A stretch of 64,000 nucleotides of DNA from a phage, in sequence record PZ000613.1; one strand, written 5' to 3'. The first letter of the stretch is position 1. Every line of letters starts with the position of its first letter. The notes beneath the pieces are model-generated. The model did no database searches and was not told the origin of the DNA. It was given only the letters and a program-made list of their open reading frames with translations. Made by a program: the position numbers and the translations under genes. This document shows, piece after piece, positions 1,754 through 24,495 of the stretch.

Positions 1754-4700
1754 TCATTTAGCAGCTAGCTGCTTTTCCAACTCTTCTACTTTAGCAGACA
1801 AAAGCTTGATAGCAGCAAGGGCATCTAGTAAAAGCGGGTTAGTGTCAAGAGTCATGACTCCACTTTTTTCTGCACTGTGAACATACTGAGGGTCCACCTG
1901 TTCTGCTTGTTGTGCAATAACCCCTCTACGTGGTGATTTCTTCTCATCGTTCTTATAAGTAAAGTTTTTAAACTCAAGAGATTTAATATTACTTAGAGCG
2001 ACATTTAGATCTAAATCATCTCCAATGTCCTTAACGTTTGCGTCAGAGGTTCCAGCATTCTGAAGAGTTGTCCACGGAAGATTGGATTTGAGTTCTTTTG
2101 GGTTGTTGTTCAAGGTGTTAGATCTGATATAAGCCGACCCACTCAGACTTACCCAAAATTGACAGATTCTATTTACAGCATAGGAAGTTTGTATACCCCC
2201 TCCATTAGCAGCTGCCCACGAAGAGTTACCATCCGAGTCGGTTATGAATTGGTTATAGTTAGAATCAGGTAATACTGTACCACCCTGAACCCCAACACCA
2301 TAATCATCTTTCACCAAAACACGACCCCTAGGAGTCTCTATATTACCAGCCTCAGTGAAATCAAAAGTAGTTCCTTTACTTGATGTTTTGTTGTAAACAC
2401 CAATTCTAGCAGAGTAAGAGCTTCCTATCGTCCCAACCATTCGGAACTCGGCTGAACCTTCAGATTCTACTCCTACTTTATACTCAGATACCACATTACC
2501 GCCGGTTACAGGGGTTCCATCAGAAGGGCGAGTGCCGTCGCTATTGATTACTGACCATGTTGTGTTGGCAGCAATGAATGCACCCTTAGCACGAATGACC
2601 CAAACACCTACAAAGTTATCAGGACGGACTCTTGAAGAACGACCATAAGCAGGGTTGTTTATTGATGCGTTAAGGGACAAGTTGCTTGAACGATTACCAC
2701 CTACATCACCTTCTGTGATTTTTGGTGGGTTCTTAGTTTCACCACTTGGTTGTAAGGCTGATTTACTAATAGACCCACCTACATACGCAAAAGCACCACC
2801 CACTGAAACAAAGTCAATAGTGCCTGTTATATTGGGGGCACCATTCTCAAAGACATCGCCGTTAGAGCCACTATTACCACCATCACCTCTGCCATAGAGT
2901 TCATTGATAGAGCCAGACTGAACACCGTTCCTATCAGGAACACGGAAAGTTGTTGTTCCATTACCTGTAGAGTATCTCCCCCTTTTGGATGGAGAGGCCA
3001 ACCAATCTGAATCAGATATCGGTGTTAATAACTGTGCATAAGCCCACAGGTCTGGATAATCAGCACGGTTGAGAAGCTGTCCGTCTGATGTTACATCATT
3101 TGGGTGAATAAAAGCCCGGCTATCCGCTAGTCTGAAATCACCAATGTTGAAATTGGAGATACCATTCATTGTAGGACCACCACCGCCACCACCTTGGTTT
3201 CTTAATTGACGTAAGGTAACGGCATCATAGTCACCAACAGCATCTGCTACAGTAACCGGCTGCTGGAAGGTAACCTTTTGAGTGAAAGTCTTAATATCAG
3301 AGTTCACACCATTAACATCGATACCAGCTGCGCCAACATCAACATTCGTGGGTTTATTATCCTCTGTATAAAATTTATAGTCCCCTCCCGGCTTAGAGAA
3401 GATCGGTGTTTCGGAAGAAGCTACTACAGTTCTAGCTAAGTGATCCCCAAATACAGAAGAATCAGAGCCGCTTCTTGATACCATGTTAACTTGAGTGTCA
3501 TTATCTTTTATTCTGCGTAAAGCTATAGTTTTGTTAAGGACTAAGTTTCCATCCATGATACCACCGGATTTAGCCAAAGCCCCTATGTTTGCAGCTGTTA
3601 TGTTAACGTTTCCTGTGATATCATTAGGGGAGATTCCGTTAACAGTAACAATATAAGGTTTCTGGTCTATTGGTTTACCATCATAAGAAGTATCTCCAGT
3701 TAAGCTAGGAGATCTAATAGCTTCACCACCAGTCCAATCAGGAAGACGGATGTTGATGTAGTTGGTAGAGTCTGCATCAGTCAGCCCATCAGCCAGTTTA
3801 CCCCAAGAATAATACTGCTTAGCGCCTGCTTGCCATTCTGTTTCAGACACAACTGGAAGTTGACCGCTAACCAAAGAAGCACCTAAATCACTAGCCAAAT
3901 CCTTGGACACCAAACGACCGTCAGCAGGTAAGATCCCCGGATAGGAAATAGGGCGAGTTGGGTCATAAGGGAACATTAACAGCTCACCAAGATATAAGGA
4001 TGGGTTACCTGTAGGGATTGTGATATCAATATTGCCACTAGAGTCAGGAATACGAGAGTTAACAGTAACAACCCGAGGTTCAGTTTTACTCAAATCAAGA
4101 ATCTTATCGGCAGCCACTTTGTAGAAAACATACTGAGTGTTTTCCCACACTAAAACAGTTTCTCCTGCCTGACGATTAACAGCATCTGCGTCCGCTTCAG
4201 CTTTAGAGCTGTATGTTTTAATAAAACCATCAACTTTGTTATCAACAACTTCTTTACTATAAGAAGCTACGTTCTCTACATTACTCAGCCCAACAGTGCT
4301 TTTGTCAAGAGTTAAAGAAACCTCACCACTCTCAGCAGGACCGCCGTTTACAGAGATAGAACGAACAGATGGGATAAGGTTTGCAATATTCTCTAAAGAT
4401 GTTTTGTGAACAGTGTTGTCATCTTTATCAACATAGAAACCTACATCACCAAGAACAGGAACGCCAGTTGGTGCGTTATCTAAATCTGTTACTGTACCAT
4501 CTTTACCCGGAGCACCTTGAGGGATACCCAAAGAGATAACACCAGTATTAGGATCAAAATGCCCAGAAGCTTCATTTCCCGGAGGAAGTGTGGTGACGTC
4601 TACTGACATACCTAACAGGATATCCAGTCGTTCCTGAACCTCAATCAACTTCTGGTCCATAAGAGCCAGAGCGTTCTGTGCGTCAGAGACTGCTGCGTTA

Positions 4701-4981
4701 GTTTGAGCAATAAGTTGCATTAAACGAGCATCTTGATCTTTAAAGTCCTGCTTCAAAGCTTCAATGTCTTGCTGCATCAGGACACCCTGTTGATACAGAC
4801 GTTCTACTTCAGCGATCAGATCATCAATTGTACCAAACTTAGACTCAGCTAGTAATGCCCAATATTTAGAATCAGCTGCATATTCTGCTGCCTGCTTGTA
4901 AGCTCCGATAGAGCCTTCTGTAGCACCAAACTGCCCAACGTTATTCACTGCATCAGGTGCTTGGTTATTATAAACGATCAT
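1754..4981 (-). CDS. tail fibre / receptor-binding protein (1075 aa)
   Basis: Long ORF after the capsid genes; Gly-X-Y-like stretch (GIPQGAPGKDG), poly-Gly hinge, tail-collar-like motif (LLNRADYPDLWAY ... TTFRVPDRNG), Ser/Gly/Asn-rich beta-type composition, coiled-coil C-terminus. Confidence 0.7.
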   Translation of the reverse strand: MIVYNNQAPDAVNNVGQFGATEGSIGAYKQAAEYAADSKYWALLAESKFGTIDDLIAEVERLYQQGVLMQQDIEALKQDFKDQDARLMQLIAQTNAAVSDAQNALALMDQKLIEVQERLDILLGMSVDVTTLPPGNEASGHFDPNTGVISLGIPQGAPGKDGTVTDLDNAPTGVPVLGDVGFYVDKDDNTVHKTSLENIANLIPSVRSISVNGGPAESGEVSLTLDKSTVGLSNVENVASYSKEVVDNKVDGFIKTYSSKAEADADAVNRQAGETVLVWENTQYVFYKVAADKILDLSKTEPRVVTVNSRIPDSSGNIDITIPTGNPSLYLGELLMFPYDPTRPISYPGILPADGRLVSKDLASDLGASLVSGQLPVVSETEWQAGAKQYYSWGKLADGLTDADSTNYINIRLPDWTGGEAIRSPSLTGDTSYDGKPIDQKPYIVTVNGISPNDITGNVNITAANIGALAKSGGIMDGNLVLNKTIALRRIKDNDTQVNMVSRSGSDSSVFGDHLARTVVASSETPIFSKPGGDYKFYTEDNKPTNVDVGAAGIDVNGVNSDIKTFTQKVTFQQPVTVADAVGDYDAVTLRQLRNQGGGGGGPTMNGISNFNIGDFRLADSRAFIHPNDVTSDGQLLNRADYPDLWAYAQLLTPISDSDWLASPSKRGRYSTGNGTTTFRVPDRNGVQSGSINELYGRGDGGNSGSNGDVFENGAPNITGTIDFVSVGGAFAYVGGSISKSALQPSGETKNPPKITEGDVGGNRSSNLSLNASINNPAYGRSSRVRPDNFVGVWVIRAKGAFIAANTTWSVINSDGTRPSDGTPVTGGNVVSEYKVGVESEGSAEFRMVGTIGSSYSARIGVYNKTSSKGTTFDFTEAGNIETPRGRVLVKDDYGVGVQGGTVLPDSNYNQFITDSDGNSSWAAANGGGIQTSYAVNRICQFWVSLSGSAYIRSNTLNNNPKELKSNLPWTTLQNAGTSDANVKDIGDDLDLNVALSNIKSLEFKNFTYKNDEKKSPRRGVIAQQAEQVDPQYVHSAEKSGVMTLDTNPLLLDALAAIKLLSAKVEELEKQLAAK

Positions 4982-4990
4982 ATTATCTCC

Positions 4991-5743
4991 TTATACACGA
5001 GAAGTACGAATACCATAAATATCAGGCAAGCTGCTCTGAAGTCGAGTCATGTTATTCGGAATTGCGATAGGTGAACCTGAGTACTCTTGTTTCTTATTCT
5101 GTTCTACCATTTCATCAAGGATAGCTTTTCCTAATGCTGACCATTTCTGAACTCCATTATCATCTTGAACAAACAAGCAAGCATGACGTAGAGTGAAATA
5201 CAGAAGAAGTTCTGGTGCAATAGTAAGAATAGCACTGGTATCTGTATCTTCGTGGAATTCCGGTGGGTCTGCATAATAACTAAGAATCACTGAGTTTTCT
5301 GCTGGGATCAAAGGGCTTCCATCATCAGGATAGTACGGAGTATCTGCTTCAATACTAGGGTAGAAAATGAAACGACTCCCGAAACGAGCAAAGTTAACAG
5401 GTTGGTTATTCCAGTGAGATGGGTTAATTGCTCCATGCTGTCTACGATAGCTAATCTCCTCAGGAGATGTTACTTGGAAGATTGCACCATCTTTGGCTCT
5501 CATCATCCATTGAGCTTCTAAGTAATCAGGAGGAATATAAGCCACCCCATCTTTGATATCTAAATAGACTTCTTTTTCCAGAGGAGGAATACGTAAGTTA
5601 CGATAAATCTCTTTCTCTGCAAAGTTAATAAAGTTTGGAATTTGATTAACAAATTCATCATCGTCCCTATCTGCCCAGAGGGCCACGGCCTTCTTTAGCC
5701 ACCCATAGGTATTGATGGGGTATTGAACATCTGGCATTGCCAT
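4991..5743 (-). CDS. hypothetical virion protein (250 aa)
   Basis: ORF with AAGGAGG RBS, located between capsid and fibre genes; no motif recognised. Confidence 0.4.
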   Translation of the reverse strand: MAMPDVQYPINTYGWLKKAVALWADRDDDEFVNQIPNFINFAEKEIYRNLRIPPLEKEVYLDIKDGVAYIPPDYLEAQWMMRAKDGAIFQVTSPEEISYRRQHGAINPSHWNNQPVNFARFGSRFIFYPSIEADTPYYPDDGSPLIPAENSVILSYYADPPEFHEDTDTSAILTIAPELLLYFTLRHACLFVQDDNGVQKWSALGKAILDEMVEQNKKQEYSGSPIAIPNNMTRLQSSLPDIYGIRTSRV

Positions 5744-5807: not shown

Positions 5808-5838
5808 AAAACGAAAAAACCCCGCCCGAAGGCAGGGT
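5808..5838 (-). terminator. rho-independent terminator after the capsid/Ig genes
   Basis: Minus-strand GC-rich hairpin (CCCTGCC-TTCG-GGCGGGG) followed by TTTTTTCGTTTT; sits directly downstream of the Ig-like ORF stop. Confidence 0.55.
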
Positions 5839-5844
5839 CTAGTT

Positions 5845-6357
5845 TTAAGCAGGTGTTACACCAGTAAAAGTGCATGTTGCATTGATGGACGGGTCAGCTG
5901 TCAAACTTGCTTGAACAGTAACTTCGCCACTTGCAGCAGCATCTAAGGTTAACGCACCAGCGGCGCTTACTGTACCAGCTTCTGTAGGAGTTACAACAAA
6001 CGTGTAATCCGCAGCAGCAGAATTAGTTACAGTAAACATGGTAGTGAAATTAGTGGAGGAACCACCAGTTTTACCCGTAATTGGACCCTTAGCTACAATA
6101 GTAGGAGCAGGAGCAACAATTTCAGAAATGGTTGCTGTACCAGAAACACCTTCTAAAGTTGCAGTAATGGATACATCAGTGGATTGAGACGCACTCGGAG
6201 CAGTATACAAACCCGACTGAGTGATAGAACCACCTCCTGTCACTGACCAAGTAAAGCCAGTTGTTTCGGTAGAACCATCACTTTTCTCCGCGCTTGCAGT
6301 GAACTGCCGAGTAGCCCCTGTCTCTAGACTAGCTAAAGACGCAGGGCTAACAGTCAC
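5845..6357 (-). CDS. Ig-like (Big_2-type) domain ORF, probably expressed as a C-terminal extension of the capsid protein by -1 frameshift
   Basis: Thr/Ser/Gly/Ala-rich beta-strand sequence typical of bacterial Ig-like domains (VTVSPASLASLETGATRQFTA ... ITATLEGVSGTATI); no AUG or RBS of its own (GTG only); frame is -1 relative to the capsid ORF and open across its stop codon. Confidence 0.6.
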   Translation of the reverse strand: MTVSPASLASLETGATRQFTASAEKSDGSTETTGFTWSVTGGGSITQSGLYTAPSASQSTDVSITATLEGVSGTATISEIVAPAPTIVAKGPITGKTGGSSTNFTTMFTVTNSAAADYTFVVTPTEAGTVSAAGALTLDAAASGEVTVQASLTADPSINATCTFTGVTPA

Positions 6358-6368
6358 ACTGTCTACTG

Positions 6369-7427
6369 TTACGCCGCCACCTTTCCCGCAGCAGTGAACA
6401 GAACGCCGGAAGCATACGGGTTGCGGTGACGCAGACCAACTTCCATTTCAATCATCCACTTCTCGTAAGAACCATCTTTCGCCAGTTCAGTACGTTTCGG
6501 AGCACGCAGAACCATCTGGGTCCAGTCAGCGCTACGGAAGAAGTAAACTGCATCGGTAGGCATCCAACGGTTAACGATGATTTTGTAGCTCTGGCCCAGC
6601 GGGTCAGTGATGCTGTTAACTTCGTAGATGAACTGCTTGGTGTTCTCAAAGATACGCTTACGTGAACCCTGAGTATTTTCTTGCAGACCAGCGAAGATCT
6701 TAGCATGAGCCGGGTTAATCATGATGATATCTGCTTCAGAACCAGCGGTATATAGTTGCAGAGTCATATCAAAGATATCAGCTTCGTCGAAACCAATGTT
6801 AGTGGTCGGGTTAGAAGCATTCTGTGCAACTTTAACAGTTACTGCACCAGTATCCGGGTCAGCAGGGCCATTTTTGGTCTTGTCAACAAAACCACCAGAC
6901 AGACCGCCGTGAGCACACAGGAACTGGAAAGCACCAGTCTTACGAGCTGCATGGGTGTCGTTCAGACCAACAACATCGGGATCAGTTGCAGAGTTAGTCA
7001 GGTACTGGTCAGCCAGAACGTCGGTACGAGCCTGACCGGACAGAAGGATCTTCTCGAGGTCACGCTTGATCTCTTTACCTTTCTTCTCCAGCTGATACAT
7101 CAGTTCACGACCACGACCATAGTTAGCGGTGGTGTTAGCAGTATCAGAAACACGAACAACCTTACGCAGAATCTGAGTAACGTTAGATTTGATAACAGTC
7201 GGTTTCATTTCGCCGTCTTCAGCACGAGAGCCTTCGACGTGTGCGTTATTAGCGTCAACGCTTGCCAATGCATCGGTCTGCCAGCTAAAGATAGTCTGGT
7301 TGATAGACTCTTTACCGGTCATAGATACGAACGGGGTATCCTGAGGGGACAGAACAGAAATCCAGTTAGCAAAAGAAAGTTTTTTACCATTCTGGTCATA
7401 CGATACAAATAAAGTTGGATTAGCCAT
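6369..7427 (-). CDS. major capsid protein (352 aa)
   Basis: Position between scaffold and Ig-like extension, size, strong RBS, followed by terminator; assignment by gene order and composition, not by a diagnostic motif. Confidence 0.6.
   Translation of the reverse strand: MANPTLFVSYDQNGKKLSFANWISVLSPQDTPFVSMTGKESINQTIFSWQTDALASVDANNAHVEGSRAEDGEMKPTVIKSNVTQILRKVVRVSDTANTTANYGRGRELMYQLEKKGKEIKRDLEKILLSGQARTDVLADQYLTNSATDPDVVGLNDTHAARKTGAFQFLCAHGGLSGGFVDKTKNGPADPDTGAVTVKVAQNASNPTTNIGFDEADIFDMTLQLYTAGSEADIIMINPAHAKIFAGLQENTQGSRKRIFENTKQFIYEVNSITDPLGQSYKIIVNRWMPTDAVYFFRSADWTQMVLRAPKRTELAKDGSYEKWMIEMEVGLRHRNPYASGVLFTAAGKVAA
6381..6387 (-). promoter_or_regulatory. -1 programmed ribosomal frameshift slippery heptamer G GGA AAG
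   Basis: Minus-strand GGGAAAG in X XXY YYZ register with the capsid frame, 4 codons before the capsid stop; the -1 frame continues without stop into the Ig-like ORF. Confidence 0.6.
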
Positions 7428-24419: not shown

Positions 24420-24495
24420 GCGCTCTTAGCTCAATGGATAGAGCAGTAGCCTTCTAAGCTATTGGTTACAGGTTCGAGTCCTGTAGGGCGCACCA
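24420..24495 (+). tRNA. tRNA-Arg (anticodon UCU), CCA encoded
   Basis: Cloverleaf read by eye: acceptor GCGCTCT/AGGGCGC, D-arm GCTC-AATGGAT-AGAGC, anticodon stem GTAGC/GCTAT with loop CTTCTAA (UCU), T-arm ACAGG-TTCGAGT-CCTGT, discriminator A plus CCA. Confidence 0.85.

Follow-up and report, generated by a model that had tools for sequence, protein, structure and literature searches.

A G GGA AAG heptamer near the end of the capsid gene of a phiEco32-like coliphage and the probable fusion of a minority of capsid subunits to immunoglobulin-like domains

We analysed a 64,000-nucleotide (nt) stretch of phage DNA (record PZ000613.1; the whole stretch is hereafter called the window), in which the major capsid protein gene lies on the reverse strand and ends in a G GGA AAG slippery heptamer, and in which the -1 frame continues past the capsid stop codon into an open reading frame (ORF) for immunoglobulin (Ig)-like domains. 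The reading that we prefer, with a probability of roughly 0.9, is that a minority of ribosomes slip by -1 at this heptamer and produce a capsid–Ig fusion of 527 amino acids (aa), which would be co-assembled sub-stoichiometrically with its Ig domains outside the head. This frameshift has already been published for the phage group concerned, the Kuraviruses, and our finding is a rediscovery. The present analysis establishes the anatomy of the locus, its conservation, the Ig-like fold of the extension and the absence of independent start signals; the larger capsid species in virions has been shown by others, in close relatives. Modestly new are three routes by which relatives arrive at a capsid–Ig subunit, a covarying hairpin within the Ig coding sequence, and the doubtful standing of the mass-spectrometric evidence from phage SU10. 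The coordinates of the features are collected in Table 1.

A preliminary description of this DNA had proposed the fusion, and its coordinates and statements on the sequence all hold on re-reading of the window. The capsid ORF ends in ...GCT GCG GGA AAG GTG GCG GCG TAA with the stop codon at 6371-6369, and the heptamer at 6387-6381 stands in the X XXY YYZ phase (nt 1041-1047 of the coding sequence (CDS), phase 2). The same heptamer is the slippery sequence of lambda G/GT. From the heptamer, the -1 frame (GGG AAA GGT GGC GGC GTA...; GKGGGVTVDSVTVSPASLASLETGATRQF...) is open for 180 codons, running into the Ig-like ORF and up to the stop codon at 5847-5845. It is already open 76 nt upstream of the capsid stop codon, a figure taken from phiEco32, which has an identical shift region, and it continues for 174 codons downstream of that stop. 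The fusion protein, previously estimated at ~520 aa and ~17 kDa heavier than the capsid protein, was computed to be 527 aa and 55.7 kDa, the unextended capsid protein having 352 aa and 38.8 kDa. After a tandem slip its junction is predicted to read ...VLFTAAGK/GGGVTVDSV... (with further downstream residues, ...FTAAGK/GGGVTVDSVTVSPASL...), and the predicted tryptic peptide of the junction, directly after ...TAAGK, is GGGVTVDSVTVSPASLASLETGATR.

The motif alone carries no weight as evidence, as GGGAAAG occurs six times in the window against 7.0 copies expected. We therefore screened every ORF of 100 aa or more in the window (64 in all) for the motif together with the frame that follows it, and the capsid ORF alone (1/64) has both an in-phase slippery heptamer within the final 45 nt and a -1 frame that stays open for 60 or more codons beyond the stop codon. 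The median -1 extension of the ORFs is 14 codons, and the remaining long -1 continuations are ordinary overlapping downstream genes. The configuration is more than chance, because it is unique among the 64 ORFs and is kept in relatives.

By its nucleotide sequence, the window is the genome of a phiEco32-like coliphage (Kuravirus; Gordonclarkvirinae) in reverse orientation. The capsid region is 98-99% identical to those of phiEco32, SU10, Ptacy1532 and dozens of other Kuraviruses, and the gene order is that of phiEco32 gp8-gp14 (portal, a small ORF, scaffold, major head protein, 'bacterial Ig-like domain', adaptor and tail fibre). The capsid protein belongs to the SU10_MCP family (Pfam PF17236, E = 5.5e-77), and is 100% identical to the capsid protein of phage Ptacy1479 and 98-99% identical to phiEco32-type capsid proteins; family assignment and portal–scaffold–capsid–adaptor synteny both place the locus in this group.

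Comparison of 16 Kuravirus sequences revealed that GGGAAAG is invariant and in phase in every one of them. The spacer between the heptamer and the capsid stop codon is 9-15 nt long and differs in sequence (variants include GTGGCGGCG, GCAGTGGCGGCG, GCGGGAGCG, GTAGCGGCGGCG and TTGGATCCGCAACAG), its length changing by multiples of three only, and the -1 frame is intact in 15 of the 16 sequences. The extensions are modular within this one genus, falling into length classes of 180-182, 457-461 or 543-547 codons; Paul, YF01, Bas86, Bas87, Bas88, Bas94 and XT18 were among the phages compared, the extensions of Paul and YF01 having 545-547 codons against 180 in the window.

Related arrangements were found in more diverged phages. 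In the Proteus phage Privateer (Grimontviridae), the capsid protein of which is 57% identical, GGGAAAG lies 7 nt before the stop codon and a 171-codon -1 extension carries Ig-type domains. Lahexavirus-like phages (loci L008 and L016-L019) have G GTA AAG, which retains only the A_AAG core and not the full X XXY YYZ motif, with -1 Ig extensions of 88-169 codons, and a relative from IMG/VR (L021) has a dnaX-type A AAA AAG with a 40-codon -1 extension that does not appear Ig-like. The -1 frame is open across the capsid stop codon in all of these phages. The Grimontviridae A24, pSal-SNUABM-01, BUCT695 and PKM.Lu.22.1 encode two tandem capsid paralogues instead, and the second of these joins SU10_MCP and Big_2 in one ORF. 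The paralogues are 73-74% identical in the two pairs compared (A24 and pSal-SNUABM-01), and the Big_2-fused copies are 361-778 aa long (Grimontviridae loci L005, L006, L007, L009 and L010; the A24 locus is 2992-5096). Judged from gene sequence, these single-ORF fusions show that, in this lineage, the Ig domains function while covalently attached to the C-terminus of the capsid protein. The four phages are, in the order given, a Cronobacter, a Salmonella, an Aeromonas and a plasmid-dependent phage.

The Ig-like nature of the downstream ORF, asserted in the preliminary description, is supported as follows: (i) the Pfam Big_2 profile (PF02368) matches the extension with 24.8 bits against a cutoff of 22.8, in the first domain only, (ii) an AlphaFold2 model made from a 22-sequence alignment (predicted local distance difference test score, pLDDT, 96.1) consists of two beta-sandwich domains, at approximately residues 8-87 and 96-178, and (iii) in Foldseek, the tandem Big domains of Leptospira LigA come out as the best solved match to this model (E = 1e-10), with Big_2-CBM56 matched as well. 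The closest homologue cluster of the extension is that of phage MN05, with 96% protein identity. The homologue search with the extension returned 27 proteins with variously truncated N-termini, none of them fused to a capsid protein; as gene callers do not model frameshifts, this search is uninformative on the fusion, and we used it for structure prediction.

The Ig ORF could also be translated alone, by re-initiation at GTG 6357, giving a free protein of 170 aa and 16.6 kDa that binds the capsid non-covalently or acts elsewhere. GenBank records list the Ig ORF as a separate CDS, the authors of the SU10 cryo-electron microscopy (cryo-EM) study treated gp10 as a possible separate decoration protein of low affinity, and the 12 nt between the capsid stop codon and GTG 6357 are compatible with translational coupling. 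Nevertheless, we consider independent initiation unlikely. As had been stated before, the ORF possesses neither an AUG nor a ribosome-binding site (RBS) of its own: there is no ATG near the junction in the -1 frame, and no Shine-Dalgarno sequence stands at a usable distance in the 23 nt upstream of GTG 6357 (GTGGCGGCGTAACAGTAGACAGT). The earliest candidate start of the -1 frame, GTG 6357, lies within the first beta-strand of domain 1 (residues 8-14 in the model) and is most likely an internal Val codon. It is not conserved either, the corresponding codon being GTA or ATA in other Kuraviruses, in which the first possible start is codon 17, 18, 35 or 48, inside the first Ig domain. Across different phages the first ATG, GTG or TTG of the -1 frame is codon 10, 17, 18, 35, 48 or 62; by the model, the first strands of the Ig fold would be lost if translation began at codons 35-48, and the extension peptide is conserved upstream of all candidate starts, back to the heptamer. 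Independent initiation would furthermore leave unexplained the invariant phased heptamer, the insertions and deletions in multiples of three only and the single-ORF capsid–Big_2 fusions of relatives, and it is at odds with the larger capsid species reported in the virions of relatives. Of the features of an X XXY YYZ cassette, we observed at this locus a phased heptamer, an open -1 frame leading into coding sequence, conservation of both in diverged relatives and no separate start codon or RBS for the downstream ORF.

The claim that a -1 frameshift fuses the capsid protein to the Ig extension as a minor virion component matches the published interpretation for this phage group, and our comparative tests agree with it. 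According to the SU10 paper, the Ig-like CDS is joined to that of the major head protein by slippage on GGGAAAG, 'as in phage phiEco32'. The Privateer paper reported the same signal and two capsid bands, detected the minor capsid protein by mass spectrometry, and cited the frameshifted product as observed in phiEco32 and SU10. For the Kuravirus-like group as a whole, the YF01 paper described the heptamer together with a longer isoform of ~500-550 aa, reaching 892-894 aa at most. A note in the Paul record reads 'Frameshift at GGGAAAG; Frameshift in PhiEco32 major capsid protein product as well (PMID: 18294652)', while the frameshift is not mentioned in the Paul genome announcement. The capsid–Ig gene is annotated as a joined CDS in the records of Paul, YF01 and Privateer.

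Several points weigh against the fusion. Support at the protein level comes from relatives only, directly from Privateer and through secondary citations from phiEco32, and most GenBank records give the Ig ORF as a separate gene. In SU10, the head map from cryo-EM has no Ig density, and the YF01 paper noted that SU10 shows no extended band in sodium dodecyl sulphate-polyacrylamide gel electrophoresis and that a stop codon 39 nt downstream interrupts its -1 frame. We found that the SU10 genome (KM044272.1) carries a 1-nt insertion (GACACTGTCTACTG vs GACAGTGTGACTG), ~25-30 nt after the capsid stop codon and equivalent to positions 6345-6360 of the window, with which the -1 frame ends after 13 codons. 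The 'alternative' form (55.4 kDa) in the SU10 mass spectrometry of 2014 had ~265 residues covered, compared with 275 for the capsid protein alone. The RNA around the heptamer counts on the same side: folds of 60-140 nt spanning or following the heptamer reached modest z-scores (-1.2 to -2.4), and the helix of the proximal hairpin (Table 1), compared across 10 distinct Kuravirus sequences, shows no compensatory changes and scores no better than the shuffle control. The 'alternative' entry of SU10 probably rests on peptides of the capsid protein only, with no Ig peptides, and we discarded it as an independent proof of the fusion on the grounds of the coverage arithmetic and the broken -1 frame.

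SU10 is the only structurally studied member of the group, and it is one without the fusion. The fusion is dispensable for laboratory propagation, because SU10 propagates despite its interrupted -1 frame and the lack of Ig density in its head. These properties of SU10 would also be expected if the arrangement were vestigial, the heptamer and the ORF being inherited and the fusion being negligible or without a role, as seems to be so in SU10, and no strong canonical stimulator has been demonstrated. We nonetheless regard a vestigial arrangement as very unlikely, as (i) the 180-codon frame is intact in the window and remains as close to the MN05 cluster as given above, (ii) the frame is intact in all but one of the 16 Kuraviruses, whose extensions of 180-547 aa are conserved and modular, (iii) random sequence of 42% G+C would rarely stay open for 174 codons past a stop codon, the median in the window being 14, and (iv) G GGA AAG is generally known to shift a few percent of ribosomes in lambda with no strong stimulator (~3.5% according to the YF01 paper).

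Under the fusion model, most ribosomes on the late capsid mRNA would stop at TAA 6371-6369 and yield the 352-aa major capsid protein. A minority would slip, the tRNA-Gly on GGA re-pairing with GGG and the single E. coli tRNA-Lys on AAG re-pairing with AAA, and would then read GGT GGC GGC GTA..., bypass the 0-frame stop codon and add 178 residues that make up two Big_2-type domains. The 527-aa product would co-assemble through its capsid body, with the Ig domains held on a Gly-rich linker outside the prolate head, and their role would likely be weak adhesion to surfaces or carbohydrates. Tandem slippage, display on the outer surface and the function of the Ig domains are what we infer from the arrangement, as is any role of a hairpin. 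The YF01 paper quoted -1 shift efficiencies of ~3.5% for lambda and ~10% for T3/T7, and the SU10 cryo-EM study gave ~715 capsid subunits for an SU10-type head; by analogy, a virion may carry tens of Ig-bearing subunits. We found no phage tRNA-Lys or tRNA-Gly gene that could modulate slippage, the only tRNA gene in the window being that for tRNA-Arg(tct) at 24420-24495 (+). A frame change at the RNA level, by slippage of RNA polymerase on the GGGAAAG run, is hardly credible, as nothing specific beyond the short G3 and A3 runs speaks for it, known sites of this kind need homopolymer runs of ~7 or more bases against the 3 nt here, and the strict X_XXY_YYZ phase matters for tRNA re-pairing and not for a polymerase.

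A downstream RNA stimulator is plausible. The preliminary description had called for a fold of the ~60 nt downstream of the heptamer, and the proximal hairpin is predicted in the minimum-free-energy fold of 6380-6320 (z = -2.31), with no covariation in its favour, as described above; its 12-pair helix is 96.7% pairable across the same 10 sequences. A second, distal hairpin is predicted in the Ig coding sequence and starts 31 nt downstream of the heptamer. Typical stimulators, whether hairpins or pseudoknots, begin ~5-9 nt from the heptamer. Across the 10 sequences, 99.4% of its alignment cells are paired and two of its pairs are compensatory (UA/GC/AU and GC/UG), and none of 500 shuffles reached the observed covariation score. 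Paul and YF01, which are otherwise close, differ there by a double change. The covariation links the synonymous third position of a Ser codon with the second position of a variable Glu/Pro/Gln/Leu codon. The outer stem of the distal hairpin competes with the 3' arm of the proximal one. Hairpins are also predicted after 6-nt spacers in Privateer and L016; in L016, a GC-rich hairpin 6 nt after AAG and a long second hairpin (z = -4.18 for the region) stand beside the weaker slip site that has A_AAG only. No Shine-Dalgarno-like stimulator was seen upstream of the heptamer. The SU10 paper proposed a stem-loop that holds the heptamer in its loop (6399-6367; -12.1 kcal/mol, z = -2.1); we did not count it as a stimulator, because the decoding ribosome would have melted its stem.

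It is attractive to speculate, and we offer this as a tentative idea that is rather doubtful at present, that minority Ig-bearing capsid subunits are obtained by three interchangeable devices across the Kuravirus and Grimontviridae lineages. The devices would be (i) the canonical G GGA AAG with weak adjacent structure in Kuravirus and Privateer, (ii) a minimal A_AAG slip site with a strong GC hairpin after a 6-nt spacer in the Lahexavirus-like phages, and (iii) a duplicated capsid gene with the Ig domain in frame, behind a terminator-like hairpin, in Crifsvirus and 7-11-like phages. In the same scheme, a conserved two-hairpin RNA element would tune the ratio in Kuravirus. As to the third device, a 12-pair terminator-like hairpin lies between the two capsid copies of A24 (L009 3955-3982), and read-through of this terminator may set the ratio of the two paralogue products.

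The second paralogue of A24 also shows a peculiarity of its own (L009 5085-5101). Its Big_2 domain ends at position 46 of the 79 of the profile, where TAA, a Shine-Dalgarno-like AAAGGAG and the ATG of the next ORF follow, and the N-terminus of that next ORF reads like the rest of Big_2; the layout is the same in ECO319P1 (two genomes). In A24 and ECO319P1, a stop–restart junction seems to divide the Ig domain. A second frameshift at the split Big_2 of this Cronobacter phage was considered and rejected, as the next ORF has its own Shine-Dalgarno sequence and ATG and there is no slip motif.

The nearest known counterparts are phiEco32 gp11/gp12 and the Kuraviruses Paul, YF01 and SU10, which share with the window the genes, the heptamer, its codon position and the -1 Ig-like extension; phiEco32 shows no material difference. 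Privateer has a homologous capsid gene with GGGAAAG at its 3' end and an Ig-type -1 extension, but its heptamer is 7 rather than 16 nt before the stop codon, its extension is a sequence-unrelated pair of I-set and Big_2 domains, and its predicted hairpin follows a 6-nt spacer. Like the system described here, 10A/10B of T7/T3 belongs to short-tailed phages, involves a -1 shift close to the 3' end of the capsid gene and yields a minor, C-terminally extended subunit that co-assembles, but it differs in capsid family and slippery sequence. The extension of T7 is short, whereas two or more complete Ig domains are added here. Lambda G/GT uses the same G GGA AAG heptamer, with a product ratio fixed by low-efficiency -1 slippage (~3.5%), but on genes for tail chaperones rather than a capsid protein, and the proteins are non-homologous. 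The second capsid paralogue of the Grimontviridae likewise consists of an SU10_MCP body with C-terminal Big_2 domain(s), but gene duplication encodes this fusion directly, with no frameshift.

These comparisons bear on annotation, since most of the ~100 Kuravirus records list the Ig ORF separately, with arbitrary starts; the joined CDS should apply to the window too. Ig domains at the surface of a sub-stoichiometric set of capsid subunits may let the phage adhere weakly to mucus or to glycans on cells, which would matter for the therapeutic use of E. coli phages of this group, and the C-terminal frameshift site is a natural point for low-copy display. The case also illustrates that a published recoding event can be recovered from raw sequence with no tools.

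Table 1. Positions of the capsid–Ig locus features in the window
Feature	Position	Strand	Description
Major capsid protein gene, 0 frame	7427..6369	(-)	352 aa, 38.8 kDa, HK97 fold; TAA stop 6371-6369
Slippery heptamer G GGA AAG	6381..6387	(-)	X_XXY_YYZ phase, Gly348-Lys349, 16 nt before capsid stop; tandem -1 slippage proposed here
-1 frame extension	5845..6387	(-)	180 codons from heptamer, 178 new residues after Lys349; two tandem Ig-like (Big_2-type) domains
GTG annotated as start of 'Ig-like domain' CDS (e.g. phi32_12)	6355..6357	(-)	Residue 11 of extension
Predicted proximal hairpin, candidate stimulator	6343..6378	(-)	6378-6365 with 6354-6343; core ACAGU/ACUGU at 6369-6365 and 6354-6350; 2 nt after heptamer
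Predicted distal hairpin in Ig coding sequence	6312..6349	(-)	Outer stem 6349-6343/6318-6312; inner stem 6340-6336/6324-6320; RNAalifold consensus
Intrinsic terminator-like hairpin	5817..5840	(-)	10 pairs and T tract, directly 3' of extension stop

No terminator-like hairpin was found between the capsid stop codon and the Ig ORF, and the records of SU10 and Paul annotate terminators at the place equivalent to that of the hairpin behind the extension (5817..5840). In XT18 and Bas86, a gene for an HNH endonuclease is inserted between the Ig ORF and the adaptor gene.

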